Origin: a virus | Lineage: Duplodnaviria > Caudoviricetes | IMG/VR virus record: IMGVR_UViG_3300042541_000817 | Span: 1 to 52,661 of that record | Strand: one strand, 5' to 3' | DNA length: 52,661 nt | Part shown: positions 91 through 35,992 of the stretch, one piece after another | Layout: each line of letters opens with the position of its first letter | Position numbering within the stretch: position 1 is the first letter of the stretch | The notes under the pieces: model-generated | The model's input: only the letters and a program-made list of their open reading frames with translations | The model's database searches: none | What the model was told of the DNA's origin: nothing | Program-made: the position numbers and the translations under genes

Positions 91-272
91 ATATTAATTA
101 TACACCTGGTTTGACAAACCAAGGTTTCTATGGTATAAGGTTTGGGGATATAAAGGTTTGGATCGTAATGCTTCAGTGGGGGCTACGGTTTTGGGGTTCG
201 TAATGTCTTTTCGTAATAAGGTTTAGAGGTTTGGTACTTGACAAATATCCAAAAATATGTCACGTGCGCTTT

Positions 273-723: not shown

Positions 724-750
724 AGTCCTCCTCCATTATCTATTGTATCA

Positions 751-820
751 AAAAGTAGGGGAAAGGGCAACCCCACGCTGCCCCTCCCCTGTAGGTCTAG
801 GAGACCCAGTCCTAGACCTG
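751..820 (-). terminator. two tandem GC-rich hairpins; the second is followed by a U-tract (intrinsic terminator)
   Basis: minus strand CAGGTCTAGGA-loop-TCCTAGACCTA, then AGGGGAGGGGCAGC-loop-GTTGCCCTTTCCCCT-ACTTTT. Confidence 0.65.
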
Positions 821-1177
821 CTCAACTAAAACTTTTGGAGCATATGCATTAATAAAGTCAACCCAGCCAATAACATTTCTATTATTGTCAATGATAGTTT
901 CTTTAGCAATGTCGATGACTACCGTCGTTTCCCCCAGGTCATAGTTACTCCCAGTGATTGAATAAATTCCAAACCCTGTCTCATCAAGAATAGAATCTTG
1001 CATAAGGTAACTAATCATCATACGATTGAAGTAAGCATAGTCTGACCACCTAGGCTTTGCATGCTGCAGGGCCATTGCTAGGTCCCGCTGCCATTCAGTC
1101 TCACCCCAGTGGCTATATAGGACCACATGGGCCTCATCTTCAACATCCTTAAATACAAAATTAATACGGGCTCCCAT
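812..1177 (-). CDS. conserved phage hypothetical protein (LYSHWG motif)
   Basis: ORF track; RBS AAGGAG; coupled to the upstream stop. Confidence 0.8.
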   Translation of the reverse strand: MGARINFVFKDVEDEAHVVLYSHWGETEWQRDLAMALQHAKPRWSDYAYFNRMMISYLMQDSILDETGFGIYSITGSNYDLGETTVVIDIAKETIIDNNRNVIGWVDFINAYAPKVLVEQV

Positions 1178-1323
1178 TAGTCATTCTCCTTAAAAGATAC
1201 GATTGATAGTTGGCTTAGTACTTCATTGAGCAGCGCTTCTTCATCTTCTGCCTCTGCTTCATATCTAAATGTCATGTAATCGCCTGTTGGCTCAAAGATA
1301 ACTTCTACTTTAAATTCTGACAT
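1177..1323 (-). CDS. small acidic hypothetical protein (48 aa, not in ORF track)
   Basis: MSEFKVEVIFEPTGDYMTFRYEAEAEDEEALLNEVLSQLSIVSFKEND; fills the gap with TAATG overlaps at both ends. Confidence 0.7.
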   Translation of the reverse strand: MSEFKVEVIFEPTGDYMTFRYEAEAEDEEALLNEVLSQLSIVSFKEND

Positions 1324-1646
1324 TATTCAATCTCACCTTCGAAATCAATAACTACCTTGCTAACTCGTCCGTCCTCGTTGAGTTGAACATAGACAGGGTA
1401 AAGTCCGTCACCATAGCCTGTGTTGAATACAACAGCAGAACCGATACCAAGTTCGCCATAAGAATTAGAAATGGTTGTGGCGCAAGCGCCGTGATAAGAA
1501 TAGTCGCCTTGCTTTCCGTCTAACTCGAATGCTTCTCCGTCATTGGTATTCCATTGGTCAAGGTAGCAGGGGTCGCCTACCATTGCTTGTCCGCTATCTA
1601 CCGCAAATGAACCTGCTAATACAAGTTCGTCTAATACATACTTCAT
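1323..1646 (-). CDS. DUF4241-like protein
   Basis: VDSGQAMVGDPCY and TGYGDGLYPV motifs. Confidence 0.65.
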   Translation of the reverse strand: MKYVLDELVLAGSFAVDSGQAMVGDPCYLDQWNTNDGEAFELDGKQGDYSYHGACATTISNSYGELGIGSAVVFNTGYGDGLYPVYVQLNEDGRVSKVVIDFEGEIE

Positions 1647-2098
1647 TGGGTCTCCTTTATTGTTAGTCCTACTAAGGTCATTTCATCAAGTGTAGCACAT
1701 TCTGTGCATTTTTCCAAATCGTGGTCTTGGAAGGAATCTCTAATAAGATTATCAGGGTCTTCCAGTTCAGCATGGCAGTTCTCACAGAAGTACCAGTTAT
1801 AGCCAATACGGATTTGAATGGTAGTGTCAGGTGGGCACGGTACCTCAGTAATGAAGTATCCTAATCTATTTACAAATCCCCAGCCAGACCAGATATAGGA
1901 GCCACCGTCATCGCCATCCCCATACATCCAGATTTTGTCAGGGGATTGAGATTTAACAAACTCTACCTCATCACCATATGTCTCAAACATAATGCCACCC
2001 TCCCCATTATCAAATGAGGCATTTGGGTCTATATGATTAGTGATTGGTTTGTATGTAGTTAGCCATTCATCAAATTCCATTTCAATAAACTTATCCAT
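1643..2098 (-). CDS. hypothetical protein with C-terminal CxxC..CxxC zinc ribbon
   Basis: ORF track; start moved to MDKFIEM; CENC/CTEC. Confidence 0.75.
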   Translation of the reverse strand: MDKFIEMEFDEWLTTYKPITNHIDPNASFDNGEGGIMFETYGDEVEFVKSQSPDKIWMYGDGDDGGSYIWSGWGFVNRLGYFITEVPCPPDTTIQIRIGYNWYFCENCHAELEDPDNLIRDSFQDHDLEKCTECATLDEMTLVGLTIKETQ

Positions 2099-2363
2099 TT
2101 TTCTTAGCCCTATCACTAATAGCAAAGGATAGTTGATATGTTAGGGCATATACCCATGACAGAGCGTCCATTTGGCCTTCCCAGTATTTACGCTCCATAG
2201 AATCCATTGCCTCTTCTGTATATTCTTCTTGCTCAACAGCGGCATTGTATTCTTTTTCAGCCTCAAGCATGAGGTTCTTAAGTTCACCATGGAGGATGTC
2301 TGTGCCTGATTCTCCAAGGTCAATGAGTTTCTGTAGTCGTGGTTCTAGGTCTGTTGTCATCAT
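2091..2363 (-). CDS. hypothetical protein
   Basis: ORF track; ATG 6 nt after the -10 of the promoter at 2370-2391. Confidence 0.75.
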   Translation of the reverse strand: MMTTDLEPRLQKLIDLGESGTDILHGELKNLMLEAEKEYNAAVEQEEYTEEAMDSMERKYWEGQMDALSWVYALTYQLSFAISDRAKKNG

Positions 2364-2569
2364 TACTCTAGTATACCCTCGGCCACTGACAAAATGTGGG
2401 AGGTGGCAATCATCTGTCCATTTAGAGATATATCCTCTATCTCCAAGTCCCAGTATTCATCTGAGTTCATATCTTCAATTAGTATCATTTCAGATTTGAG
2501 TTTCTCAGAATCTTGCTCCAGCGATAGGAGGTGCAGTTTCATGTATTCTTTAAGTGTGTTTAGGTCCAT
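2363..2569 (-). CDS. acidic hypothetical protein
   Basis: ORF track; tight packing. Confidence 0.7.
   Translation of the reverse strand: MDLNTLKEYMKLHLLSLEQDSEKLKSEMILIEDMNSDEYWDLEIEDISLNGQMIATSHILSVAEGILE
2370..2391 (-). promoter_or_regulatory. TGTCAG-N10-TAnnnT (PafBC/RecA-NDp-type) promoter
   Basis: TGTCAG tggccgaggg TATACT; one of 11 copies. Confidence 0.7.
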
Positions 2570-2572
2570 ATA

Positions 2573-2812
2573 TTAATTATAGGGGTTTGAGTTGATTTTT
2601 ACAACTTGGCGGGGTGTGACTTTAATCACAGGTTCATAGTCAGGGGTAGGATCCTCATCTACATGTGTAACAGTAGCATCCCATTTGCTTAATAGGATTA
2701 CATGAGATGATGCATGGCAAATGCAGGCGGGATCAATCTGAGGCTCAACTGATGCAGTAATCTCTATAAGAGCATCACAGTCAGTACATAGATAAGTAAA
2801 CTTAGTCCACAT
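2573..2812 (-). CDS. hypothetical Cys-containing protein
   Basis: ORF track; CTDC and CIC motifs. Confidence 0.65.
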   Translation of the reverse strand: MWTKFTYLCTDCDALIEITASVEPQIDPACICHASSHVILLSKWDATVTHVDEDPTPDYEPVIKVTPRQVVKINSNPYN

Positions 2813-2892
2813 TAGCAGTCCTCACAAGTAGTATCGCCATAGGTAATAGATACTCCACAGTCAGAGCACCAGGATTCATCATACATTCCCAT
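2812..2892 (-). CDS. 26-aa zinc-ribbon micropeptide (not in ORF track)
   Basis: MGMYDESWCSDCGVSITYGDTTCEDC; TAATG overlaps at both ends. Confidence 0.55.
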   Translation of the reverse strand: MGMYDESWCSDCGVSITYGDTTCEDC

Positions 2893-3053
2893 TACTCACC
2901 CCAATACTTTATAATAGTATTCATAGTCATATGGAGATTACAATCGCAATCCCCACCATTCATGTTCTCCATGAATTCAAAGTGCGATAGGTTGTCCTCA
3001 TAGATTTCTGTTACCAGTTCATCTATGGTGTATGGTTTGTGGGTTGTGGTCAT
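2892..3053 (-). CDS. hypothetical protein
   Basis: ORF track; start moved to MTTTHKPY (ATGA overlap, RBS AGGAG). Confidence 0.65.
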   Translation of the reverse strand: MTTTHKPYTIDELVTEIYEDNLSHFEFMENMNGGDCDCNLHMTMNTIIKYWGE

Positions 3054-3280
3054 ACTGTACAAGACTCCTGACATATGTGATAGGCTTTTAGAGATGATAC
3101 TGTCAATTCTAACATTTCGTCAGGGTATCTGTCAAGCACCCAATTAAGTGCTTCACCAGCAGTATTGAAGTCAGAGGCAGTGCTACTTTCTCCATAGCCT
3201 TGTATAGTTGCTTCCCAGCAGTCAACGCCACCAGGGGAGCAGGAGTATTCCATTTCGTATATTTCTACATTTAGGGTCAT
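3050..3280 (-). CDS. hypothetical protein
   Basis: ORF track; leaderless after TTGACA-N17-CATAAT. Confidence 0.7.
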   Translation of the reverse strand: MTLNVEIYEMEYSCSPGGVDCWEATIQGYGESSTASDFNTAGEALNWVLDRYPDEMLELTVSSLKAYHICQESCTV

Positions 3281-3286
3281 GTATTA

Positions 3287-3315
3287 ATTATGACAGGAAT
3301 CCTGGGAAATGTCAA
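3287..3315 (-). promoter_or_regulatory. sigma70/SigA-type promoter
   Basis: TTGACA-17 nt-CATAAT, 6 nt before ATG. Confidence 0.65.
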
Positions 3316-3320
3316 GTCTA

Positions 3321-3396
3321 TCGTAAAGATTTTTTGGTTTGATATTTTTGGGGATTTTTAATAGTCTTCGTAAAGATTTTTTAATTTGACATTTTT
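3321..3396 (+). repeat. 29-bp imperfect direct repeat TCGTAAAGATTTTTTnnTTTGAyATTTTT
   Basis: copies at 3321-3349 and 3368-3396. Confidence 0.75.
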
Positions 3397-3440
3397 ATGT
3401 CCGATATGTCTGAATTGTCCACACGTGCGGATTTTCTTTG

Positions 3441-3516
3441 CGATTCCGATGGGATTTGAACCCACGATCTCTACAGTGACAGTGTAGCGATTTAAACCAG
3501 ACTAATCTACGGAACC
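3441..3516 (-). tRNA. tRNA-Asp(GTC)
   Basis: cloverleaf: acceptor GGTTCCG/CGGAATC, anticodon stem CTACA/TGTAG with CT-GTC-AC loop, T-loop GTTCAAATC, discriminator G; no encoded CCA. Confidence 0.93.
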
Positions 3517-3522
3517 AAATGG

Positions 3523-3550
3523 TGAGCAGTTTTTATTCTTACTCAGGAAT
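3523..3550 (-). ncRNA. H-type pseudoknot motif copy 1
   Basis: ATTC-CTGAGTAA-GAAT-AAAAAC-TGCTC. Confidence 0.7.
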
Positions 3551-3558
3551 TTTTTTAA

Positions 3559-4575
3559 TTATGCAATCTGCAAAACATTTTGCACAACTTTTAGCAAACG
3601 ATTCTTTTCTGCATTGATAGCAGGGTCAAATCCGCTTGCGCTTGCAAGGATAGATTCGTTAGAACCACCACGAGCAGAACGATACCAATCAAGGCGTTCA
3701 GTTAGTGCATTGAAAGCACCCCACGCATTACCAGCAATCATTCCATTGAATTCGCCAGTGTAGATGTCATTGATAACATCAACCTTGTTTTCCCATTTCT
3801 TGAAAGCACCCTTAGAATCTTTTTCAGGCTTAGGGTATGCAGCAAGAATGATGTTGTTGAAATCTTGTGCGGTGATTTCTTTTTGAATCATAGCGTTAGC
3901 CATAACATCAAAAGAGTCCATGTACTTATGGGCAAGACCCAAAGTTTCACGAGCAACGGCAACCTTACCAGAAGCGGTCTGAGTGTGGCGAATCTTGAAA
4001 GATTGCTTGACACCATTCTTTTTCTTAGTAGTGTTTAGTGCAAGGTTAAGAGTGTTAGCGCATACAACACGAACAGGTGTGATACTTGCTTGAATAGCGA
4101 TTGAGCCATCGTGTGATGTATTGATAAGTAGATAAGTCTTGACCTTATCTGCAACACCGCTAGGGTCTAAGATTGTTTCACGCTCTAGTGCTAATGCACC
4201 GAATACGACACGACCACCCTTGATTGAACCAGCGGTTTCCCAACGACCTCCGCCATCGAGAATGTTATCACCGAATGAAAATAAATCTTCATTCTGCATA
4301 ACATGATAACGCTCACCAACGACACCAAGAATGTCGGTCTGAGAGTTGTCAGTAGGATTGGTACGCAATACATACTGATAGTTTTTGTCACTTGTTAAGT
4401 GTGATGGGGTTTCCAAATCCTCAAGACGAACATTCCAATTAGAAAGGCTTGCTAGGTCTAGCATTTCTTTTGTTGTTTTTTCCTCTGTGAATACGGTACC
4501 CAATCCATGCCAAGCGGGTTCACGAAATGATGCGAATGAAGCCTTACCATTTTGTGTTTCGATTTCATGTGCCAT
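3559..4575 (-). CDS. DUF932 family phage/plasmid-like protein
   Basis: REPAWHGLG, ETAGSIKGG and NTSHDGS..TPVRVVCANTL motifs; start moved to MAHEIE with RBS AAGGAG. Confidence 0.88.
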   Translation of the reverse strand: MAHEIETQNGKASFASFREPAWHGLGTVFTEEKTTKEMLDLASLSNWNVRLEDLETPSHLTSDKNYQYVLRTNPTDNSQTDILGVVGERYHVMQNEDLFSFGDNILDGGGRWETAGSIKGGRVVFGALALERETILDPSGVADKVKTYLLINTSHDGSIAIQASITPVRVVCANTLNLALNTTKKKNGVKQSFKIRHTQTASGKVAVARETLGLAHKYMDSFDVMANAMIQKEITAQDFNNIILAAYPKPEKDSKGAFKKWENKVDVINDIYTGEFNGMIAGNAWGAFNALTERLDWYRSARGGSNESILASASGFDPAINAEKNRLLKVVQNVLQIA

Positions 4576-4606
4576 GAGTTTTCTCCTTTTTTGTTGTTGA
4601 ATTTTA

Positions 4607-4736
4607 AGTATAGCAGGACGGGCTGACAAATGCAAATCGGGATAGTTAAACATGGGACAAATTGGACATTCCTTAATGTGATTAAATTCACATGATCGTA
4701 AAAGTTATCCACAGACTTATCCACAGGCCCCACGTG
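4607..4736 (-). promoter_or_regulatory. regulatory cassette: PafBC-type promoter, GGACA-N4-GGACA, CRP site, two DnaA boxes, CACGTG
   Basis: 4607-4628; 4655-4668; TGTGA-N6-TCACA 4677-4692; TTATCCACA 4705-4713 and 4717-4725; CACGTG 4731-4736. Confidence 0.75.
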
Positions 4737-4759
4737 TAAATTTTGCGGGAATTAAAAGT

Positions 4760-4787
4760 TGAGCAGTTTTAAAACATGCTCAGGTTT
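4760..4787 (-). ncRNA. H-type pseudoknot motif copy 2
   Basis: AAAC-CTGAGCAT-GTTT-TAAAAC-TGCTC. Confidence 0.7.
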
Positions 4788-4802
4788 ATTAGTAGCCCCC
4801 TA

Positions 4803-5231
4803 CTAAATATCTATACGGTCCACACTGGATGATAACCATGTGACATCATCTGAATTGTAAGATACAGTATCGAAATCAATATCATGAATTAGATTCTGTG
4901 CACTTTCTTCATCTCGTGCATTGACTGTAATTGAATAAAGAACTGTGACTTCCAATTCAAATTCTTTTGTTAACTCAAATCCGCAAATATCTGCAATTGC
5001 TTGTGCAGTCTCTTCTGAAATGGTACCGTCGTCCAAGTTTTCTAAGGTCCACTCTTGCATTTCATTACGCATACGAGAGCGCTCTGCAGCCTCACCATAT
5101 GAGCGCTGAGTTACTTTTTGAATGTGCTCTTCAAGTTGTTGAATGCGTTCTTTGTTTTGTACTAGAGTAGTTTCTAAAAACTCTCGTGTCATATAGTGTG
5201 TGTCTGTTGCTACTGTGATTGGTTGGTCCAT
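4803..5231 (-). CDS. acidic coiled-coil hypothetical protein
   Basis: ORF track; RBS GAAAGAGG; promoter at 5263-5292. Confidence 0.8.
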   Translation of the reverse strand: MDQPITVATDTHYMTREFLETTLVQNKERIQQLEEHIQKVTQRSYGEAAERSRMRNEMQEWTLENLDDGTISEETAQAIADICGFELTKEFELEVTVLYSITVNARDEESAQNLIHDIDFDTVSYNSDDVTWLSSSVDRIDI

Positions 5232-5262
5232 GGGGGCCTCTTTCTGTTAGTTGGTTAATTCA

Positions 5263-5292
5263 ATTGTACTGGGTGCCACTGACATTTGTCAA
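5263..5292 (-). promoter_or_regulatory. promoter with both TTGACA -35 and TGTCAG-N10-TACAAT
   Basis: TTGACA aa TGTCAG tggcacccag TACAAT. Confidence 0.7.
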
Positions 5293-5305
5293 GATCCCTT
5301 GCGGG

Positions 5306-5332
5306 GAGTAGTTTATACACATACTCAGGTGT
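5306..5332 (-). ncRNA. H-type pseudoknot motif copy 3
   Basis: ACAC-CTGAGTAT-GTGT-ATAAAC-TACTC; compensatory change in stem 2. Confidence 0.7.
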
Positions 5333-5387
5333 CTTATCTCAGGCATACCTACACATCAAGGCGTAGGGCTTAGCAGAGATAAATTAT

Positions 5388-5813
5388 TTAGAGATAACGA
5401 GCAACCGCATTGTAAGTGCTGGTGCTAACTACTTCCTCATCTGTCATCTTGAGAATACGAATTGCGTTAGACATTTCATCTACCATCTCGTTGTAGGTGT
5501 GTCTGTGGATTTGCTCAAAATTACGCTCAGGTTCAGCAGGAAAGTTTGTTCCGCTTTCTACCTTGATGTCAAAATCAACATTGAGAGTTTTGTTCCACTC
5601 ACGATAGTTCGTGCGTAGATTTTCTGCCTTTGAGATTTGACTAATAGCATACTTTACTAATTGTTCGTTCCAAGCCTTTTGTGCTTCTTGGAACTTTGCT
5701 TCGTTCTCATCTTGTGTTTTGTAGTTAGCCTCTAGTTCTGCTAACTTAGTTTCTAGTGCGTTGATAACTCTCTGTGTAGGTATCTTTACGCTAATTGCTT
5801 TTCCTCTTGCCAT
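5388..5813 (-). CDS. conserved phage hypothetical protein (coiled-coil)
   Basis: ORF track; RBS AAGGA. Confidence 0.8.
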   Translation of the reverse strand: MARGKAISVKIPTQRVINALETKLAELEANYKTQDENEAKFQEAQKAWNEQLVKYAISQISKAENLRTNYREWNKTLNVDFDIKVESGTNFPAEPERNFEQIHRHTYNEMVDEMSNAIRILKMTDEEVVSTSTYNAVARYL

Positions 5814-5853
5814 TGGGTCTGTTTCCTTTTCTTTGTTTTGTTAGGGGGTTGGT

Positions 5854-5891
5854 TGAGCAGTTTATTTATTATCTCATGCTCAGGAGATAAT
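5854..5891 (-). ncRNA. H-type pseudoknot motif copy 4
   Basis: ATTATCTC-CTGAGCAT-GAGATAAT-AAATAAAC-TGCTC (8-bp stem 1). Confidence 0.72.
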
Positions 5892-5898
5892 TGTCAAA

Positions 5899-6063
5899 CT
5901 ACTTGGCTGTCCAAGTTGTGTATCGTGGCTTGCCATTTACATCTAACTTGACACGAACATTTCCGTTAGCCTGTGGTGTGATTTCTGTGATGATACCACT
6001 TACCTTTGACTTTTGAGTTGTGTAGGTGTCGCCTACTTTGTAAGTTGCGGTTGCTACTGACAT
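5899..6063 (-). CDS. 54-aa SH3/KOW-like small beta protein (not in ORF track)
   Basis: MSVATATYKVGDTYTTQKSKVSGIITEITPQANGNVRVKLDVNGKPRYTTWTAK; RBS GAAGGG; own TTGACA-N18-CATAAT promoter. Confidence 0.75.
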   Translation of the reverse strand: MSVATATYKVGDTYTTQKSKVSGIITEITPQANGNVRVKLDVNGKPRYTTWTAK

Positions 6064-6161
6064 TTGTTTCCTTCTTTCTGTTAGGGTTTTGCTTACTATC
6101 TAATTATGACATTTCTTGGGAAAAATGTCAAGTCTAATTTGAGATTTCTCAAATAGTGAGA

Positions 6162-6332
6162 TTACTTGCTGGTCTTGACCATAGCCAAACGGCGTGAGCC
6201 ATTTGCTAGAACTAGACTAACTCTGGTAAGTTTATTAGACATTGGCTCAAAACTAGCAATACGACCTGTAATGCCTGTCTTGCTTGTCGTGAATAAATCA
6301 CCAATTTGGTATTGGTATCCTCCAAGGGTCAT
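6162..6332 (-). CDS. 56-aa SH3/KOW-like small beta protein, paralog of 5899-6063 (not in ORF track)
   Basis: MTLGGYQYQIGDLFTTSKTGITGRIASFEPMSNKLTRVSLVLANGSRRLAMVKTSK; RBS GAAAGG. Confidence 0.75.
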   Translation of the reverse strand: MTLGGYQYQIGDLFTTSKTGITGRIASFEPMSNKLTRVSLVLANGSRRLAMVKTSK

Positions 6333-6420
6333 TGTTCTGCCTTTCTGTTGTGGGGTTTTGCTTACTATCTAATTCTAGCAGAAAAATGTCAAAAATACCA
6401 ATTCAGCGGAGGATTTGGGG

Positions 6421-6484
6421 TGTGTCCTTAATCACATCTTAAAGGCGTGTCGTGACTTGACAGATCAAAGATTTTGCCCACGTG
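6421..6484. promoter_or_regulatory. CRP-like site, GACACGCC (WhiA-like) and CACGTG
   Basis: TGTGT-N6-TCACA 6421-6436; GGCGTGTC 6444-6451; CACGTG 6479-6484. Confidence 0.6.
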
Positions 6485-6566
6485 CCCTTTCGGGATTACT
6501 ACTGATACAAAAATAAAATAAATAAAAAAAATGCTAAGAACATCCATTGTGTTGAATTCATTTATC

Positions 6567-7289
6567 TCATTTCTTACTCGCAGAAAAAATTATGTCACTC
6601 TTAGAGTATACACAAAGTGAGCAAGAAACGCAAGCGCTTCCATTTGTTGAGATAAGCGGAATTTGTTTATTATTCTCAGGACACTTAGCAGCAGGCTTAC
6701 CAATCATTTCTTTTACATCTGCTTGACCAATAGCAAAATTCTTAGCAAGGTATGCCATGCGTACGCCACTATTAATTTTTAGGTCTACTGCGGTTTTTAC
6801 ATTCTCGCTATCTGCAGAAAAGTATAGGCTTAGATTATCAATACCCTTGAGCATTAGAGCAGCACTTGCTACACGAGTATAAACCCAAAATTGAATTTCA
6901 GGATGATTAAGTATTACATGCTTCCATGCGAATGTGTAGGTATCGTTAAAAAAGTCTCCGTCCCAATGAATACGGAATAGTTTAGGAGCGTCTTTCTTAT
7001 TGCAGTCTGCAACAAAATCAACAATCATTTCTTCAAGCAATGCTTTCATAGTATCATGGTCTGCGTCTTTAAGCAATGCCCAATTGTGTAATAGATTAGT
7101 TTTTACTGCGGGGAATAGTCTTTCGAGTTTTCCTGCGTAGCATACGCTTTCACATACGCTAGTGGCACCAGGGCACGAGAAAGCCTTTCCAGCAGGTAAT
7201 CCAAATGTGTTTGCGATACTTGCTTGTTTTCCATTTTTTGTGACAAGGTTAGCCACCTTCCTATCTTTAGAGCGTTTTAGTTTAGTCAT
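6567..7289 (-). CDS. Gp88-family protein (Cys-cluster, radical-SAM-like)
   Basis: FGLPAG..SCPGATSVCESVCYA, FRIHWDGDF, WVYTR and C-terminal CP..CxxCxLC motifs. Confidence 0.75.
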   Translation of the reverse strand: MTKLKRSKDRKVANLVTKNGKQASIANTFGLPAGKAFSCPGATSVCESVCYAGKLERLFPAVKTNLLHNWALLKDADHDTMKALLEEMIVDFVADCNKKDAPKLFRIHWDGDFFNDTYTFAWKHVILNHPEIQFWVYTRVASAALMLKGIDNLSLYFSADSENVKTAVDLKINSGVRMAYLAKNFAIGQADVKEMIGKPAAKCPENNKQIPLISTNGSACVSCSLCVYSKSDIIFSASKK

Positions 7290-7295
7290 GGGGTT

Positions 7296-7439
7296 CTACT
7301 TTCTTTCTTTAATTATAGCGGAGGGGTCTGACAATTTTTTTCTATTGTAGGTTTTCTTTGACGGAACACTTGAGGCAGCATTAGATCTACGCAACTCCAT
7401 AAGTCTGCGTAATTCCTCGGGTGTTTTCTTTTGTGTCAT
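7296..7439 (-). CDS. 47-aa very basic protein (not in ORF track)
   Basis: MTQKKTPEELRRLMELRRSNAASSVPSKKTYNRKKLSDPSAIIKERK; leaderless after TTGACA..TAAGAT. Confidence 0.65.
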   Translation of the reverse strand: MTQKKTPEELRRLMELRRSNAASSVPSKKTYNRKKLSDPSAIIKERK

Positions 7440-7484
7440 AAACTAATCTTAGCATACATGGGATAAAAATGTCAAATCTTAAAA

Positions 7485-7542
7485 TGTGATAAAGATCACA
7501 CGACGCACGTGGGCATTTTTATGCGGGGAAGTGCATAAAAAT
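7485..7542. promoter_or_regulatory. CRP site, CACGTG and terminator-like hairpin
   Basis: TGTGA-N6-TCACA 7485-7500; CACGTG 7506-7511; ATTTTTATGC/GCATAAAAAT inverted repeat. Confidence 0.6.
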
Positions 7543-7550
7543 ACTTTTAG

Positions 7551-7793
7551 TTATTCTATTGTTTCAATAAAAACATACAACGGAATTAAATCAGTGTAAG
7601 AATAATTGGCAAAGTCTAATTCATCAAATTCATTCTTAGTCTGAATACTCCAATTATCTGCAGTTGAATCACTTTCAATAAACATAACTTCAACAATGTC
7701 ATCACCGACTTTAATTAAATCGCCAATCATTAATTGATCTGGCTTGAGTTCATCTGCAAAGATTAGTTCCATGCTATTTATTGTATCAGACAT
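7551..7793 (-). CDS. acidic hypothetical protein
   Basis: ORF track; RBS AGGAGG. Confidence 0.75.
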   Translation of the reverse strand: MSDTINSMELIFADELKPDQLMIGDLIKVGDDIVEVMFIESDSTADNWSIQTKNEFDELDFANYSYTDLIPLYVFIETIE

Positions 7794-7794
7794 T

Positions 7795-8010
7795 TTACTT
7801 TCCTCCTACTTTTCCGTCACGATAAAAAATCTTGGTGTGCATTTTGCCATTAGGCTCTGAAAAATTGTAGGTTGCATAGTCATCTGCAAATCCCCAATCC
7901 ACAATTTTATTCCACTCGGTCACTGCGCTAATTGCGTCTGAATAACGACCAACCCAATGAGGTGAAGTATCATTATCATAGGTTGCAGTAATTGCGTATG
8001 AGTATTCCAT
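7795..8010 (-). CDS. hypothetical protein (DxGFAxDY..PxG..TK motif)
   Basis: ORF track; start moved to MEYSY; similar to the N-half of 35511-35966. Confidence 0.75.
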   Translation of the reverse strand: MEYSYAITATYDNDTSPHWVGRYSDAISAVTEWNKIVDWGFADDYATYNFSEPNGKMHTKIFYRDGKVGGK

Positions 8011-8011
8011 T

Positions 8012-8308
8012 TTAGTATTCCCTTTCAATAAGCCACGCATTTAGGTGGTGTTGTTCAATTATTGCATAAGCGGGGGCAGTAGTCAAACCCTTATAGGTTA
8101 TTCCTTCGGGCATAGGTATTTCCAAGTCCCATAGTCCTGCGTCATTTACTGCGTCAATAGCCTCAATACATACCGATACCATAGACTTAGGCACTGGCGG
8201 GTAGTGATTAGCAGATAAGTGAATACCTATCTGAGTTTCTAAATCAAGATGAATACCAAGATTATCAAGTGTTCCGTCTGCCATTTCTGTTGCAAAATTA
8301 CTTCCCAT
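8012..8308 (-). CDS. conserved actinophage-type hypothetical protein (HLxxNHYPPVP, HHLxAW)
   Basis: ORF track. Confidence 0.8.
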   Translation of the reverse strand: MGSNFATEMADGTLDNLGIHLDLETQIGIHLSANHYPPVPKSMVSVCIEAIDAVNDAGLWDLEIPMPEGITYKGLTTAPAYAIIEQHHLNAWLIEREY

Positions 8309-8541
8309 TATCGTGCTTCTCCGCTCATTAGTAGTTCAGGCTCACTTAGTAGCCCATTATCCCAAATAACACTTCCGTCATAGTCTAATAGTAATTCGTA
8401 GGGATTACACTCGCAAGTTTCTGAGTCAAAATCCTCGCCATTTCCCCAATACAAATTACCTTGACCATTACAAGCATTACAATTCTGTATCGCTCTTAGT
8501 GCGTATTCTAATTTATCCATTTTTTCCTTCTTTCTGTTCAT
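8308..8541 (-). CDS. DnaJ-type CxxCxGxG zinc-finger protein
   Basis: CNACNGQG...CECN; start at 8541 (leaderless) or 8520 (RBS). Confidence 0.7.
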   Translation of the reverse strand: MNRKKEKMDKLEYALRAIQNCNACNGQGNLYWGNGEDFDSETCECNPYELLLDYDGSVIWDNGLLSEPELLMSGEAR

Positions 8542-8590
8542 ACTGAAATCCTATCAGATAGGGCTGACATTTTCAACCCTACCCAACCAC

Positions 8591-9088
8591 TCACCAAGAC
8601 GAATGGTACGAAAAGGACAAATTGGACAATTCGGGTAGAGCAAGAATACGCTCTAATTGTTCAATAGTATTCTCTAGGTCACGCCAATACCATTGATCGA
8701 TATCTGTTCCACCAAAGAAAAATCCTTCTTGTGGTGGCAATAGGCTAGGGTCTTTATTTTCTAAAGAGTGCTTACAAATCGCAAGCAATTCTATTAATTT
8801 ATCTTGTGATACATAGTAGTCACCGCAGTCGTCAATTCCTTTTTGTACATTTTTGACAAACCAATTATGAATCTGATTAGCCTTGCGCCAATAAGCACAA
8901 GTCACTTCTACGCTTGCGCCATAGATATCTGTTGCGACATTGGATAATTGTGTTAATTCCATTAGGTTGTTGAATTGCGGATATACCGCTTCAGGTGAGT
9001 CATAAGATAATTCGTCATTATCTCTTAGTGCGTTCCAATTCACTTTTTCCAAGTGTTTCTTGGCTAGTAAGTACATATCTAATCCCAT
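8591..9088 (-). CDS. conserved phage hypothetical protein (MGLDMYL, YWRKANQIHNWF)
   Basis: ORF track; RBS GAAGG; motif common in phages. Confidence 0.85.
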   Translation of the reverse strand: MGLDMYLLAKKHLEKVNWNALRDNDELSYDSPEAVYPQFNNLMELTQLSNVATDIYGASVEVTCAYWRKANQIHNWFVKNVQKGIDDCGDYYVSQDKLIELLAICKHSLENKDPSLLPPQEGFFFGGTDIDQWYWRDLENTIEQLERILALPELSNLSFSYHSSW

Positions 9089-9116
9089 TGGATTACCTTC
9101 TTTCTTTTAGGCTTCT

Positions 9117-9227
9117 AGCCTATCATTTCCTACTGACAAAATCAAACCGACACGCCGTAAAATCTGGGGGAATATTAAAATGTGTCGTAAATCACCCTGT
9201 GTATAACCCTGTGGATAACCCCACGTG
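9117..9227 (-). promoter_or_regulatory. regulatory cassette: PafBC-type promoter, GACACGCC, CRP-like site, two DnaA boxes, CACGTG
   Basis: 9117-9138; 9149-9156; 9181-9196; TGTGTATAA 9198-9206 and TGTGGATAA 9210-9218; 9222-9227. Confidence 0.72.
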
Positions 9228-9234
9228 AAATTTT

Positions 9235-9261
9235 TGAGCAGTTTTAGATCATGCTCAGGAT
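9235..9261 (-). ncRNA. H-type pseudoknot motif copy 5
   Basis: ATC-CTGAGCAT-GAT-CTAAAAC-TGCTC. Confidence 0.68.
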
Positions 9262-9268
9262 TTGAAAA

Positions 9269-9370
9269 CTAGAATCCGTTTTCTTTTATGTCTTTAATTG
9301 CTAATCGCAATAAATAAAATGTTGAAATTAGCAAAGCAAGTTGCACAAGTGTTGTTAAAAATCTGCTCAC
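9269..9370 (-). CDS. 33-aa single-TM peptide (not in ORF track)
   Basis: GTG start overlapping the upstream TGA; MSRFLTTLVQLALLISTFYLLRLAIKDIKENGF. Confidence 0.5.
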   Translation of the reverse strand: MSRFLTTLVQLALLISTFYLLRLAIKDIKENGF

Positions 9371-9567
9371 GCATTTACCTCAATTCCTTTATAGCAAGCA
9401 AGAGCAAATCTATTTGCGTCAAATCTTGGATTATCAGTTTCAAACATTAGAGAAAATTCATCTACCAAATCAGCAAATAAAATTTCTCCTTGCTCATCAA
9501 AAACAGAAGTAGCAAAGTAATTGCTAAGAATTTCAGCAGTTGCGACATAGTCTTTTCGTGTCATCAT
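9367..9567 (-). CDS. hypothetical protein (TRKDY...DNPRFDxxRF family)
   Basis: ORF track; similar to the C-half of 35511-35966. Confidence 0.8.
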   Translation of the reverse strand: MMTRKDYVATAEILSNYFATSVFDEQGEILFADLVDEFSLMFETDNPRFDANRFALACYKGIEVNA

Positions 9568-9656
9568 TTATGAGCACACTCGCTTTCTATTTCGTGTCCA
9601 AATTCATCTACTAATTCCTCGTAGATTTCGTCTAAGTATTCTAAGTAATCGCTCAT
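9564..9656 (-). CDS. 30-aa highly acidic peptide (not in ORF track)
   Basis: MSDYLEYLDEIYEELVDEFGHEIESECAHK; overlaps both neighbours. Confidence 0.6.
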   Translation of the reverse strand: MSDYLEYLDEIYEELVDEFGHEIESECAHK

Positions 9657-9862
9657 TATTCAGCCACCTTTAGAGTAGCCCAAGAATTGCCCTTATTGAC
9701 TTCATCAAGGACAGGACCGAGAGCAGGCGCAAGCAAATCTTTTAGCATACTTTCAAGAAAGTGAATTTGAATTTCACTATCTAATTCTAATAGTTGCTTA
9801 GCAGTTGGATTATTTTCATCTACCTCAGTTATGAAGTGGAGAGAGTGTTTAATTGTTTTCAT
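9656..9862 (-). CDS. hypothetical protein
   Basis: ORF track. Confidence 0.7.
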   Translation of the reverse strand: MKTIKHSLHFITEVDENNPTAKQLLELDSEIQIHFLESMLKDLLAPALGPVLDEVNKGNSWATLKVAE

Positions 9863-9881
9863 TTATTTTATTTCCTATTCT

Positions 9882-10073
9882 TTAATTTGAGGGGATAAGT
9901 GTGCCACGAAGTGTGCCACGAATTGAGAGAGTGTCGCAAGACATTTTGACCGCAACGCCTACTGGTAATTGAGTAGGATAAGTTGAGATAAATTGAGCAA
10001 CCGCACCTTTAGAGGGCAGGCTAATTTTTTTAGTAGAACCATTAAAGGTTTCTAGTGTTATAGTGTAAGTCAT
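9882..10073 (-). CDS. hypothetical protein, paralog of 12333-12524
   Basis: ORF track; RBS GAAAGGA; PafBC-type promoter at 10106-10127. Confidence 0.75.
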   Translation of the reverse strand: MTYTITLETFNGSTKKISLPSKGAVAQFISTYPTQLPVGVAVKMSCDTLSIRGTLRGTLIPSN

Positions 10074-10128
10074 TTTGACTTCCTTTCGTTTTTAGGTATA
10101 AGACTATCTTATACTATGGGGCTGACAA

Positions 10129-10341
10129 TTAGTCTGCGTTTTTTACCGCTAGATAGCGATAGGTATCCTTTAGGTTAAATATTGAGGGATAGTGTGGGCG
10201 AACCTGAACCCGATAAGTATCACAATTAGCATACCAAACCTTATCGGTTTTTTCTGCGTCGATTATTTCGCCATTTATTGAGCGAGAATTGTAAGTCTTG
10301 CCAATTAGCAGACTTTCTACATTATAGACATTTGCTGACAT
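10129..10341 (-). CDS. hypothetical protein, paralog of 10998-11198
   Basis: ORF track; PafBC-type promoter at 10373-10394. Confidence 0.75.
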   Translation of the reverse strand: MSANVYNVESLLIGKTYNSRSINGEIIDAEKTDKVWYANCDTYRVQVRPHYPSIFNLKDTYRYLAVKNAD

Positions 10342-10372
10342 AGTGTCACTTCCTTTTTTTCTTTAGATAGTA

Positions 10373-10595
10373 AGTATAGCATTTTTGGCTGACATTATCA
10401 AATCCAAATTCGGACATTTCCGACATTTTGAATGTGATACTCATCACACCGATTTTGCTATTTATTTAATTGTATAAGAGAATACTACCAGATAAATCTC
10501 AAAAAGTCAAGGCGACACGCCGTAAATGCGAGATTTATTTATGTGACCTTAAACACATTTTGCTTGTGGATAACCTGTGGATAAGTGCACGTGCA
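10373..10595 (-). promoter_or_regulatory. regulatory cassette: PafBC-type promoter, GGACA repeat, two CRP sites, second promoter with GACACGCC, two DnaA boxes, CACGTG
   Basis: 10373-10394; 10412-10425; 10433-10448; 10514-10521; 10542-10557; TGTGGATAA 10565-10573 and 10576-10584; TGCACGTGCA 10586-10595. Confidence 0.75.
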
Positions 10596-10809
10596 AAATT
10601 TGCAAAGTTTTTCTCTGCAATTTTGTTTTTATTTATTTTATTTCTTTACACTTAAGTAGTCGCTAATATTTACATACACAATGTATGCAACATAGGCTAA
10701 TACTGAAACAAAAATAATTTTCATTTATGATCTCCAATTTCATCTAGCAATTCCCAAAGTATTGGCTCTAATTCTTTAGCAACCAAATCTAATTTATCTT
10801 GTAAGTTTT

Positions 10810-10998
10810 TCATAGTGGCAAAATCTCTTTTCCATAGTATCCAACTGCTTCAACTAAGTTAATTACACTTTTGTATTCATTACAATTAAAGCAAATTCTA
10901 TTTTCTTTATTCATAGTGGTTGAGCAATAAACGCAGATATTATCTTGAAGGTTAAATCCTAACGCTTCAATTTCATTAAGGGACATAGATATTTTCAT
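10810..10998 (-). CDS. zinc-ribbon hypothetical protein
   Basis: CVYC...CFNC. Confidence 0.7.
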   Translation of the reverse strand: MKISMSLNEIEALGFNLQDNICVYCSTTMNKENRICFNCNEYKSVINLVEAVGYYGKEILPL

Positions 10999-11198
10999 TA
11001 GTTATCCTCAACCTTCACGCTAATAGTAGCCCAATTATTGCCATTAAAGCGAATAGCAAAAGCCTTATAGCCTTCGGGAGTATAGACATCGCTTCTCTCA
11101 GTAGAGTAGTTAATTTCACCATTAAGGTGTTTTCTCACAAGAGAGCGAGGATAGTATTGCTGACCATAGAGCAGGTCATTTATTGAATAAGTTTTCAT
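10998..11198 (-). CDS. hypothetical protein, paralog of 10129-10341
   Basis: ORF track; RBS GAAAGG; PafBC-type promoter at 11232-11253. Confidence 0.75.
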   Translation of the reverse strand: MKTYSINDLLYGQQYYPRSLVRKHLNGEINYSTERSDVYTPEGYKAFAIRFNGNNWATISVKVEDN

Positions 11199-11221
11199 TT
11201 AAGTTATTACCTTTCTTTTCT

Positions 11222-11398
11222 TTACTTAGTAAGTCTATCAGAAGCCTCTGACATTTCCTTACACTTATTAGGGTTATCCCACCAAGGGAAGCCCTCATGG
11301 TAGGTAGCAGGGGCAAGGACTACCTGACCGCAAGGGCATAGGTTCATCATGCCTTTAGGGTAGTCGTGTATAGTAGCGAACCTATTCCAAATACTCAT
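11222..11398 (-). CDS. 58-aa hypothetical protein (not in ORF track)
   Basis: MSIWNRFATIHDYPKGMMNLCPCGQVVLAP...; TAATG coupling. Confidence 0.6.
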   Translation of the reverse strand: MSIWNRFATIHDYPKGMMNLCPCGQVVLAPATYHEGFPWWDNPNKCKEMSEASDRLTK

Positions 11399-11604
11399 TA
11401 GTTAGCAACCTGACAAGAACCGCTAAGAGATTTCCAAGCAGACCAACCGCTAAGGCGGTCTGGGTCTTCTACCCAATAAGAGGTTATGTCTAATTCGCAA
11501 TTAGAGCAAGTCGCATAGCGGTCATACTCATCACTTACGATAGATGATTTAATTGCTTCGTGTGTAGAGAAGCCTAGTTTTTTTAGTAGTGTTTGTTCGT
11601 TCAT
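11398..11604 (-). CDS. hypothetical CxxC protein, paralog of 12016-12195
   Basis: ORF track; RBS GAAAGG; PafBC-type promoter at 11639-11660. Confidence 0.75.
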   Translation of the reverse strand: MNEQTLLKKLGFSTHEAIKSSIVSDEYDRYATCSNCELDITSYWVEDPDRLSGWSAWKSLSGSCQVAN

Positions 11605-11656
11605 TTTAGAACCAACCTTTCTTTTTCTTTATGTAGCAAGTCTAGCAGAGGGGTCT

Positions 11657-11756
11657 GACAAATCGGGGCATTTATTCGCTAGGCTCACTGTGATTTATCT
11701 CACATTTATTTGCTAGGCTCACTGCCCGATTTATCCCTTATTTAGTTTTTCTTACT
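11657..11756 (-). ncRNA. candidate ~100-nt two-fold symmetric small RNA
   Basis: own promoter (TTGCTT-N17-TAGACT, 11762-11790); 22-nt direct repeat held between an outer and an inner stem; no ORF. Confidence 0.55.
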
Positions 11757-11761
11757 CCGTA

Positions 11762-11967
11762 AGTCTAACATAAAAATCTCAAAAAAGCAAATCGACACGC
11801 CGTACTACAAGTGTGTTTCTTATCACATTAGTTATCAACAGCCTGTGGATAAGTCCACGTGTGACACGTGCAAATTCGGACATTATGGACATGTGATTAG
11901 TATCACAAAAATAGTTTTCCGACACGCCCGAGAAACAGGTCAAAATGTCAGTGGTCTGTGTTAGACT
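11762..11967. promoter_or_regulatory. divergent promoter hub with mirrored regulator sites
   Basis: leftward promoter 11762-11790; GACACGCC 11794-11801; CRP-like 11812-11827; DnaA boxes 11832-11840 and 11844-11852; CACGTG 11856-11861 and 11865-11870; GGACA repeat 11878-11891; CRP 11892-11907; GACACGCC 11921-11928; rightward TGTCAG-N10-TAGACT 11946-11967. Confidence 0.75.
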
Positions 11968-12015
11968 TACAGTAGTAAGAAAATGAGAAACTCTCATTAA
12001 GAAAGGTGGTCTCAA

Positions 12016-12195
12016 ATGACTACACTAACAATAACAAAATGCGTAGAGCATAAGCCTATGCTATCCGCTATCTCCAATGTAGGAGATGAGCAATTCACTT
12101 TCTGTATGGATTGTGAAAATAACATAGAGCGTTGGTATAACGATACCGACCCTGAAAGACTACCAATGTGGTCAGATTGGAGTGTATCTCTATGA
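12016..12195 (+). CDS. 59-aa CxxC protein, paralog of 11398-11604 (not in ORF track)
   Basis: RBS GAAAGGTGG; FTFCMDCENNIERWYNDTDPERLPMWSDW. Confidence 0.75.
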   Translation: MTTLTITKCVEHKPMLSAISNVGDEQFTFCMDCENNIERWYNDTDPERLPMWSDWSVSL

Positions 12196-12332
12196 TAAAC
12201 TCAGTTAAAACTATTGATTGCTCTACCTGTTATGGTAGAGGCTACATATTTTTCGGGGACAATGATGATTGTGCCATTGAAACATGTGATTGCGTATTAA
12301 ATGATGAACTAAATGTAGATTGGATTAACTAA
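12192..12332 (+). CDS. 46-aa CxxCxGxG zinc finger, paralog of 8308-8541 (not in ORF track)
   Basis: MINSVKTIDCSTCYGRGYIFFGDNDDCAIETCDC...; ATGA overlap. Confidence 0.7.
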   Translation: MINSVKTIDCSTCYGRGYIFFGDNDDCAIETCDCVLNDELNVDWIN

Positions 12333-12524
12333 ATGATAAATGTAACACTAACAACAACAACAGGCTCCACTAAGGGCATGAGGTTTGATACTAAGAATGA
12401 TGTCCTGCTATTCATTGAGAAGATGTCCGATACACTGCCTATCGGTACAGCAGTGAATATTGACGCACCACTCATTGGAATACATAGTGGGTGGATACAG
12501 GGTAAGCGTCTACAAAACACATAG
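12333..12524 (+). CDS. hypothetical protein, paralog of 9882-10073
   Basis: ORF track; followed by a terminator. Confidence 0.75.
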   Translation: MINVTLTTTTGSTKGMRFDTKNDVLLFIEKMSDTLPIGTAVNIDAPLIGIHSGWIQGKRLQNT

Positions 12525-12542
12525 CCTTATCTATTAAAAGAT

Positions 12543-12572
12543 TAGTGGGTCTATGGGCTCACTATTTTTTTT
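12543..12572 (+). terminator. intrinsic terminator
   Basis: TAGTGGGTC-TATG-GGCTCACTA-TTTTTTTT. Confidence 0.8.
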
Positions 12573-12676
12573 GATCATTTTTTGTTTATTTATGTATCAT
12601 ACATCTAAACAAAATATTCCAATTTACTCTAATTAAGAAATCTGAAAACAAATCTGAATTATGATATACTTAAACC

Positions 12677-13249
12677 ATGAGAAAACAATACACACGAGTC
12701 CAATACGACGAAAACGGTTTAAAGCAATGCACAAATTGCCAGGAATACAAAGAGACATCTAACTTCCATAAATACTCTAAGGCTCAAGATAGTTTGAAAC
12801 CTTGGTGTAAGGTTTGTGTAAGAGAATACGACTTGGCAGAAGATGATCCAAAAAGGGTTATGCCTAGAAAAAAGCAGGGGGAATTAATTCATTGTCGTAG
12901 ATGTGAAAAATATCTAGATAAATCTAACTTCTGGCGTGGCTCAACATATTGTCGTCCATGCAAGGTTTATATAGGTATAAACTCTAACCTTAGAAATAAA
13001 AACCTGACTATAGAAAAATATTCAGAATTAGAAAAATCTCAAAATGGGGTTTGTAAAATTTGCGGGAATACAGATTATAAGCGTTTATCCGTAGACCATG
13101 ATCATGCATGCTGTCCTGGAGAAAAAACTTGTGGAAACTGCACAAGAGGCTTATTGTGCTCTAGATGCAATAGAGCCCTAGGCTCTGTTAATGATGATGT
13201 AAAACTGTTACAAACTATGATACGATATTTAAATGGGGATATTAAATAA
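12677..13249 (+). CDS. recombination endonuclease VII-type (His-Me finger) nuclease with N-terminal zinc fingers
   Basis: QNGVCKIC..LSVDHDH..RGLLCSRCNRALG; two N-terminal CxxC..CxxC repeats typical of homing endonucleases. Confidence 0.85.
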   Translation: MRKQYTRVQYDENGLKQCTNCQEYKETSNFHKYSKAQDSLKPWCKVCVREYDLAEDDPKRVMPRKKQGELIHCRRCEKYLDKSNFWRGSTYCRPCKVYIGINSNLRNKNLTIEKYSELEKSQNGVCKICGNTDYKRLSVDHDHACCPGEKTCGNCTRGLLCSRCNRALGSVNDDVKLLQTMIRYLNGDIK

Positions 13250-21105: not shown

Positions 21106-21106
21106 A

Positions 21107-34111: not shown

Positions 34112-34120
34112 GAGATACAA

Positions 34121-35966: not shown

Positions 35967-35992
35967 GATAAACCCTATGATATAATCTTATT

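Follow-up and report, generated by a model that had tools for sequence, protein, structure and literature searches.

Ordered cassettes of regulator-like sites at the early promoters of a lake phage family

The virus sequence analysed here (Duplodnaviria; Caudoviricetes) is IMG/VR record IMGVR_UViG_3300042541_000817, and "the window" denotes the entire record, 52,661 bp long, estimated to be 48% complete and with about 38% G+C. Small minus-strand genes with gaps between them occupy positions 1-11604, and a divergent switch follows at 11605-12015. In these gaps we found ordered arrays of short motifs that resemble the binding sites of bacterial regulators, several of them placed in fixed register with core promoters of two classes. 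The arrays are very probably cis-regulatory cassettes of early promoters. The explanation that we prefer is that they are composite early control regions which host proteins would read as sensors of host state, and we give it about an even chance.

Exact motif counts in the window were compared with 300 first-order Markov simulations of its 52,661 bp. The DnaA-type box TTATCCACA occurs six times (simulated mean 0.75), the word GACACGCC five times (0.31) and the exact CRP-like box TGTGA-N6-TCACA six times (0.09), and none of these counts was reached in any of the 300 simulations. The 12-mer CGACACGCCGTA is present three times against a simulated mean of 0.00. CACGTG, with nine copies against 4.38, is weak if taken alone (11 of 300 simulations reach nine). 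The first three motifs are nearly confined to the gaps among small minus-strand genes at 2.6-12 kb: all six exact TTATCCACA and all five GACACGCC lie in gene gaps at 4.7-11.9 kb, and one exact CRP-like box, at 2615, is inside a listed open reading frame (ORF) rather than a gap. The exact TTATCCACA boxes fall in four pairs (4705/4717, 9210 with partner 9198, 10565/10576, and 11844 with partner 11832), both named partners having one mismatch. An earlier note on this DNA, made from its letters alone, had reported these motif classes, and all are present where it placed them; enrichment over simulated sequence is clear for TTATCCACA, GACACGCC and the CRP-like box, and weaker for CACGTG.

Four cassettes, A to D, are complete. 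Read in the direction of transcription, each runs from a gene-end hairpin through CACGTG, two DnaA-type boxes, a CRP-like box and GACACGCC or TGTCC repeats to the promoter, so that the motif order claimed in the earlier note holds in all four. Their components are as follows.

Cassette A, 4577-4802, minus strand, upstream of the DUF932 gene at 3559-4575
4760-4802, minus strand, hairpins
4731-4736, CACGTG
4717-4725 and 4705-4713, DnaA boxes
4677-4692, CRP-like box
4664-4668 and 4655-4659, TGTCC repeats
4628-4607, minus strand, promoter TGTCAG-N10-TATACT

Cassette B, 9089-9275, minus strand, upstream of the gene at 8591-9088
9258-9235, minus strand, hairpin element
9222-9227, CACGTG
9210-9218 (exact) and 9198-9206 (one mismatch), DnaA boxes
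9181-9196, weak CRP-like box with two mismatches
9148-9159, CGACACGCCGTA
9138-9117, minus strand, promoter

Cassette C, 10342-10600, minus strand, a distal and a proximal module upstream of the gene at 10129-10341
10588-10593, distal CACGTG
10576-10584 and 10565-10573, distal DnaA boxes
10542-10557, distal CRP-like box with one mismatch
10513-10524, distal CGACACGCCGTA
10510-10505 (TTGACT), N17, 10487-10482 (TAGTAT), minus strand, distal canonical promoter
10433-10448, proximal CRP-like box
10410-10426, proximal TGTCgg/TGTCC
10394-10373, minus strand, proximal TGTCAG-type promoter

Cassette D, 11605-12015, both strands, divergent and nearly mirror-symmetric control region, leftward part 11605-11875
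11660-11639, minus strand, leftward TGTCAG promoter
11689-11704, leftward CRP-like box
11767-11762 (TAGACT) and 11791-11786 (TTTGCT), minus strand, leftward canonical promoter
11793-11804, leftward CGACACGCCGTA
11812-11827, second leftward CRP-like box with one mismatch
11832-11840 (one mismatch) and 11844-11852, leftward DnaA boxes
11856-11861 and 11865-11870, two central CACGTG
11878-11882 and 11887-11891, two rightward GGACA
11892-11907, rightward CRP-like box
11921-11928, rightward GACACGCC
11946-11967, plus strand, rightward TGTCAG promoter, for the gene at 12016-12195

The orientation of the DnaA-type pair varies among cassettes A-D, and the gap between the CRP-like box and the nearest DnaA box measures 12, 1, 7 and 4 nt across them; because both orientation and spacers differ, these cassettes are not simple duplicates. 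In cassettes C and D, one promoter of each class stands in tandem, with GACACGCC going with the distal, canonical one, which amends the earlier view of a single promoter per cassette. The mirror series of cassette D, at 11762-11967, reads promoter, GACACGCC, CRP-like box, two DnaA boxes, two CACGTG, two GGACA, CRP-like box, GACACGCC, promoter. Beyond the DnaA boxes of cassette C lies an AT-rich stretch (10595-10700).

The first class of core promoter is TGTCAG-N10-TAnnnT, which has 13 matches in the window against 0.69 expected, 12 of them within 2370-11967. One match, at 10340, falls inside the start of a gene and is probably due to chance. The second class is canonical, TTGACA-N17/18. A scan for the sigma-70 consensus gave no overall enrichment (35 matches against 31.3 +/- 4.6), and only the top minus-strand matches in gaps were used.

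5' ends at 2391, 4628, 5284, 7333, 8569, 9138, 10127, 10394, 11253 and 11660, minus strand, TGTCAG-N10-TAnnnT promoters with no -35 consensus
3315, 3135, 5897, 6131, 6392, 7475 and 10510, gene strand, canonical TTGACA-N17/18 promoters in gaps

Several TGTCAG promoters have TGTCC/TGTCgg repeats at 9-nt spacing some 23-40 nt upstream (4655-4668, 8600-8625, 10410-10426), and these repeats have the same GTC core as the -26 element.

A search of IMG/VR with the GP88 protein returned at least 596 related stretches, of which the best 80 loci (81-93% identity, 1.34 Mb) were used for comparison; since these loci are close relatives, raw counts are inflated by shared ancestry, which counts of unique contexts and of clusters correct in part. 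The 80 loci contain 784 matches to TGTCAG-N10-TAnnnT, 699 of them on the gene strand. In all five complete relatives (109-119 kb), the promoter motif has 7-15 copies that share one orientation and form a single block, while the control is found 0-1 times. The promoter logo, aaaTGTCAG.ccc..atG.TA.aaT, carries no information at the would-be -35. Anchoring promoters by a -10 element, a Shine-Dalgarno sequence and ATG was too loose (1517 contexts) and served only to rank 6-mers in the -26 register, where TGTCAG is commonest, with 279 cases against 25 for the runner-up. PafBC promoters are described as tGTCgg(N10)tA(N3)T, with a -26 element, no -35 and a 22-nt layout (PMC8635444). The phage promoters have this sequence geometry, with GTC in the -26 element, 10 nt ahead of TAnnnT, and no -35.

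The other motifs also recur in the relatives. Across the 80 loci we counted 448 copies of TTATCCACA against 14 of the reversed word, 354 of GACACGCC against 3 of its control and 444 CRP-like boxes against 2, an excess over control words of 30- to 200-fold for the three motifs. CACGTG has 122 copies in 47 of the 80 loci, compared with 13-89 for three other palindromic 6-mers; another motif is found within about 45 bp of 56 of these copies, where 7.3 were expected. In 36 viral contigs, many of which belong to the phage family of the window, a pair of DnaA boxes precedes CACGTG. A parS reading of CACGTG was dropped, the parS consensus being only half present. In a complete relative of 109 kb, every motif class lies inside 54-71 kb, with seven exact DnaA boxes, seven CRP-like boxes and nine GACACGCC.

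In the 80 loci, the CRP-like box (logo TGTGAt.t..aTCACA) starts at -44 (60 cases), -54 (37) or -64/-65 (37) from the T of TGTCAG, and these peaks persist after clustering of the contexts at 75% identity (21, 22 and 21 clusters). At canonical promoters the start is at -25/-26, -37 or -47 relative to TTGAC, so that the distances from the -10 element agree with those at TGTCAG promoters. If the -10 element is assumed to span -12 to -7, the box centres lie at about -52.5/-53.5, -64.5, -74.5 and -84.5. GACACGCC is placed at -25 from TGTCA in one orientation (42 cases) and at -17/-18 in the other (40 cases), and at -18 or -11 from TTGAC at canonical promoters; it is thus just upstream of the -35 position in both promoter classes. 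It occurs on both strands (197 and 157 copies), with the logo CGACACGCCgt, and the conserved word is 11 nt long, CGACACGCCGT. DnaA-type boxes are farther upstream of the promoter, at -63 to -105, with no single fixed distance. Adjacent DnaA boxes are 11-12 bp apart in 124 of 185 pairs, mainly as direct repeats. The variation tolerated in DnaA boxes is usually summarised as TT[A/T]TNCACA. Among 120 one-mismatch variants near cassettes, 43 differ at position 5 and 20 have A>T at position 3, both in agreement with that rule, and 29 have C>A at position 6, which it disallows.

Over 530 unique promoter contexts, site order is largely constant: CACGTG precedes the DnaA box in 14:0 cases and the CRP-like box in 22:3, and the DnaA box precedes the CRP-like box in 89:7. 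The earlier note had named a lack of conserved order in relatives as a finding that would speak against it; order is conserved for these three pairs, but not between GACACGCC and the CRP-like box (35:103). Its statement that the DNA between motifs is unconserved also stands in part. The 70 nt or so nearest the promoter are nearly unchanged among 44 unique orthologues of the stretch upstream of the DUF932 gene, and cassettes C and D share the distal promoter, while the modules farther upstream turn over, the DnaA pair appearing in either orientation or being swapped for GACACGCC. A few of these orthologues have TGTCGG instead of TGTCAG.

Upstream units are closed by a gene-end element, CTGAG[CT]A-N10-16-CTGCTCA, which has 175 matches on the gene strand of the 80 loci, none on the other strand and none for the control. 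It follows stop codons, and closes the upstream unit before cassettes A and B, before the gene at 5388-5813 and before tRNA-Asp. The fold is weak (-4.2 to -6.5 kcal/mol, z -1.1 to -1.4) and there is no U-run, for which reasons a classical intrinsic terminator was ruled out. A separate hairpin, TTAGTAGGGGGCTACTAA, at 4785-4802 on the minus strand, overlaps the stop codon of the gene at 4803-5231 and is invariant in the 44 orthologous sequences. The gene-end elements and the remaining, partial cassettes of the window are listed here.

3546-3523, 4783-4760, 5883-5854 and 9258-9235, minus strand, gene-end elements

Partial cassette E, 6333-6566, minus strand, upstream of the gene at 6162-6332
6479-6484, CACGTG
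6444-6451, GACACGCC in reverse orientation
6421-6436, CRP-like box with one mismatch
6392-6364, minus strand, canonical TTGACA-type promoter

Partial cassette F, 7440-7550, minus strand, upstream of the gene at 7296-7439 and the GP88 gene at 6567-7289
7506-7511, CACGTG
7485-7500, CRP-like box
7475-7470 (TTGACA), N18, 7451-7446 (TAAGAT), minus strand, canonical promoter

Weak partial cassette adjoining tRNA-Asp, 3281-3439, minus strand
3422-3427, CACGTG, overlapping TTGTCCACA at 3415-3423
3398 and 3416, TGTCC
3315-3287, minus strand, canonical promoter

The transcript of the gene at 7296-7439 (47 aa) is probably leaderless, since the predicted -10 element TAAGAT ends 7 nt ahead of the ATG. In an Rfam scan of positions 1-13000, the tRNA was the sole match.

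Protein homologies place the window near known actinobacteriophages. Its portal protein shares 46-47% identity with the portals of Streptomyces phages of about 130 kb, such as Coruscant (NC_070782.1), and its GP88-family protein (6567-7289, minus strand) shares 52-55% with gp88 of mycobacteriophages such as L5. Against cultured phages, a megablast with 3300-12100 gave no match. The first 11 kb of Coruscant lie within a 12-kb direct terminal repeat, according to its genome paper (PMC7650747). Judged from its sequence, the window region is the counterpart of this terminal-repeat early block, because the Coruscant stretch within the repeat has the same layout and homologues of GP88 and DUF932.

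From homologies alone we infer an actinobacterial host. A search of genome contigs with the RecA of a relative found five loci, all on phage-like contigs in metagenome-assembled genomes (MAGs), and no host. Contigs of the window's phage family, with RecA 79-98% identical, were binned in MAGs labelled Bifidobacterium, Methylococcus and Flavobacteri(um/ia); these labels are probably the result of mis-binning and cannot be used as host calls. The promoter word was not enriched at the MAG recA copies or in 13 genomes of one MAG's family (0-9 per strand, control 0-16 per strand). Fourteen DNA runs labelled lake water metagenome contain at least half of the sampled words from 3300-12100, some of them possibly being the source sample. 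In RNA libraries, contigs from four of four runs that are at least 90% alike span much of 1-13000, from which starts, strand and level cannot be deduced and in which DNA carry-over is possible.

Two further observations concern genome content. A 500-bp non-coding gap at 69215-69710 of the complete relative has three co-oriented TGTGGATAA boxes and many AAGGTTTG/CAAACCTT repeats, and is likely a replication origin; the same three-box string is found in 29 of the 80 loci, and its counterpart in the window would fall just past the left end. The window also has an unusual run of 2OG-Fe(II) oxygenase paralogues, with nine Pfam hits at 21092-21709 and 32631-39579 (eight within 32.6-39.6 kb), which adjoins a class II ribonucleotide reductase gene.

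In the mechanism that we propose, the early small-gene block, a homologue of the 12-kb terminal-repeat block of Coruscant, would be built of transcription units that each end in the conserved, strand-specific gene-end hairpin element, the next unit opening with a set of protein sites. These sites stand in fixed register with a core promoter that is either TGTCAG-N10-TAnnnT (the "sigma adaptation" geometry of PafBC) or canonical and TTGACA-type. The 16-bp TGTGA-N6-TCACA box, on one helix face, would probably work like a class I activator site; CGACACGCCGT lies directly upstream of the -35 position in either orientation; and the TTATCCACA boxes, in tandem with a period of 11-12 bp, come farther upstream, as does CACGTG in some phages. 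A host CRP/GlxR-type protein and host DnaA would read two of the sites, and another reader, for which WhiA is a candidate, the third. The strength of early promoters would then follow the state of the host.

Pfam searches bear on who reads the sites. The complete relative has 164 ORFs, and the 122 that were scanned showed no CRP, cNMP-binding, DnaA, WhiA, WhiB, WYL or sigma domain; the other 42 (structural ORFs at 22-45 kb, five crossing locus borders, and ORFs shorter than 55 aa) lay outside that scan. None of these domains was found in 74 window ORFs, and PHROGs gave no regulator family for 35 early window ORFs. The complete relative encodes a DnaB-like helicase, a primase, Pol III alpha and RecA, and no recognised initiator among the ORFs scanned. 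Because no recognisable homologue of such regulators was found among the scanned ORFs of the complete relative, host proteins are probably the simplest readers of the CRP-like and DnaA-type boxes. WhiA is a possible reader of GACACGCC: its target is an asymmetric GACAC upstream of the -35, which may be on either strand, and WhiB bridges WhiA to sigma A (PMC10243135). The GACAC core of GACACGCC abuts the -35 on both strands, yet 11 nt are conserved against the 5-nt WhiA consensus. The idea of a host-state sensor, put forward in the earlier note, has thus gained promoter-linked sites that match CRP/GlxR operators and DnaA boxes and for which no phage homologue of the reader was detected, and it keeps the standing of a prediction.

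We tentatively extend the host-sensor explanation to suggest that the early units of a very abundant family of virulent lake actinophages may be multi-input readers, with the PafBC-type core responding to single-stranded DNA or damage, the phased CRP-type box to metabolism, the DnaA tandems to replication and the GACAC box, through WhiA/WhiB, to division. Host regulators would then set the strength at which infection begins, and replicating phage DNA would drain them as a by-product.

Several observations weigh against host readers, and some of them fit an alternative that is possible though rather doubtful, namely that phage-encoded proteins, whether small early ones or a sigma adaptor, use the boxes as operators and time the block, by shut-off of the first promoters or by switching on the TGTCAG promoters as a "middle" class, with the likeness to CRP, DnaA and PafBC sites due to convergence or mimicry. 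A precedent for such timing is T4, where MotA and AsiA switch on middle promoters. The syntenic block of Coruscant (GP88 43% and DUF932 51% identical) has homologous cassettes of the same layout with other palindromes (GGCGCCCGGCGCC and TAGATG-N7-CATCTA), and its first 14 kb contain no TTNTCCACA and no CRP-like box within one mismatch; since layout is shared and palindromes are not, the site sets are lineage-specific and phage-encoded readers are possible. Two promoter classes coexist, and the canonical ones could express a factor for the TGTCAG class. Of 293 TGTC cases in register, 279 have TGTCAG as the -26 element, which leaves less variation than the host consensus with its degenerate positions (PMC8635444), and position 5 of the mycobacterial consensus is g. 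No family could be assigned to most early ORFs, which leaves room for a novel phage DNA-binding protein, as do the 42 ORFs outside the Pfam scan. Individual sites turn over fast among orthologous gaps, and under the assumed transcription start the CRP-like centres are about 3 bp off the class I positions of E. coli. Finally, the host may lack CRP or PafBC, and its DnaA box may differ from the consensus. Against phage-encoded readers, the 9-mer is exactly the DnaA consensus and the 16-mer exactly that of CRP, and the degeneracy and the tandem spacing are DnaA-like. Neither the early ORFs of the window nor the 122 scanned ORFs of the complete relative gave a match to a helix-turn-helix or another regulator family.

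A main role of the cassettes as recombination scaffolds for the shuffling of small genes, with the motifs secondary, is unlikely. Orthologous gaps do have different module sets, the DnaA pair can be either way round at the same place, and contigs of relatives in the four RNA libraries link cassette to cassette (for example 4682 to 9210 and 10586 to 11891), for which the promoter-early stem-loops (PeSLs) of T4-type phages are a precedent (PMC4122927). These joints have 90% likeness and short flanks and may stem from repeats or other organisms. Recombination requires shared sequence, but not helical register with the -10 element, and a scaffold role is in any case compatible with regulation.

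The earlier note had also offered a decoy role, in which the sites chiefly titrate host DnaA, CRP and other regulators off the host chromosome as phage copies build up. We do not favour this and consider it distinctly unlikely. Each genome has several sites of consensus strength (seven DnaA, seven CRP-like and nine GACACGCC in the 109-kb relative), and the copy number of phage DNA goes up during replication. However, the CRP-like box keeps to 10-bp steps from the -10 element and GACACGCC to two fixed positions next to the -35, in both promoter classes, and a regulator sponge needs no such register. A titration locus of the datA type acts independently of promoter register, which here is fixed. 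The sites are moreover confined to the early block, never genome-wide, and are gained and lost individually between close relatives. Titration may be a side effect of the cassettes.

A role of the tandem DnaA boxes in replication, as origins or in helicase loading, is very improbable: the family has the DnaB-like helicase, primase, Pol III alpha and RecA with no recognised initiator, and an AT-rich stretch follows the boxes at 10595-10700, but each genome has at least four separate DnaA pairs, all tied to promoters, and the gap at 69215-69710 in relatives, with three co-oriented boxes and AAGGTTTG repeats, is a better candidate.

Early phage promoters are usually described as strong, constitutive and host-type. 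Here, at least 596 related lake phage contigs belong to a group with early promoters that carry sites of master-regulator consensus in helical register, many with a layout known from the DNA-damage promoters of actinobacteria. Should host proteins be their readers, the sites would be a clear case of a lytic phage tying its first transcription to host physiology, and would provide DNA probes for the function of CRP, DnaA and PafBC in uncultured freshwater actinobacteria. Among the papers listed in our literature searches, none dealt with such cassettes or with PafBC-type phage promoters, as judged by title.

Of the systems to which the cassettes can be compared, the nearest in architecture are the PeSL cassettes of T4-type phages, which combine a stem-loop with an early promoter and are points of genetic exchange (PMC4122927). 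In likeness to them, units of a hairpin and an early promoter are repeated here between small variable genes, module content varies and contigs join cassettes. The differences are another phage lineage and host phylum, longer gaps, three to four extra factor-type motifs in promoter register, and a core promoter that frequently has a -26 element in place of the sigma-70 -35/-10 arrangement. As predicted from sequence, the cassettes resemble PeSLs in how they work but fall outside the PeSL family, given a portal with 47% identity to portals of Streptomyces siphophages and the lack of a -35 in most promoters.

Class I CRP sites in E. coli are centred at -61.5, -71.5 and -82.5. The phage cassettes have the same 16-bp palindrome as these and as the Crp/GlxR operators of actinobacteria, at whole-turn steps upstream of the core promoter, but with centres at about -52.5/-53.5, -64.5, -74.5 and -84.5 under the assumed start. 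DnaA acts as a transcription factor at promoter-proximal boxes, as at dnaA and nrdAB of E. coli and in B. subtilis. Perfect TTATCCACA boxes in same-face tandems upstream of the promoter are shared with such promoters; what differs is that they belong to several promoters in the early block of a virulent-type phage, with free orientation and at distances of -63 to -105.

With PafBC-dependent (RecA-NDp) promoters, the phage promoters share the 22-nt xGTCxx-N10-TAnnnT layout, the invariant GTC and the lack of a -35 (PMC8635444), and they differ in having A rather than g at position 5 in about 95% of copies, in the common extended -10 TGn and in their occurrence in a phage. With WhiA/WhiB sites they share an asymmetric GACAC core on either strand just upstream of the -35; in contrast to the variable spacing reported for WhiA, the 11-nt word CGACACGCCGT is held at two fixed positions (PMC10243135).

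A further comparison is the early block of Coruscant, with its syntenic leftward small genes, homologues of GP88 (43%) and DUF932 (51%), and gaps made up of a terminator, two palindromes and a promoter. At 1344-11292, about 12 gene gaps repeat a terminator, GGCGCCCGGCGCC, TAGATG-N7-CATCTA, a -35 (TTGCAT-like) and TAAGCT, and xGTCxx stands in the PafBC register at six of the 16 promoters. Neither "promoter" nor "motif" is used as a word in the Coruscant genome paper (PMC7650747). Coruscant differs from the window in its palindromes, in a canonical -35 and in having no DnaA or CRP-like boxes in its first 14 kb, so that the two blocks share a layout and are furnished with different sites.

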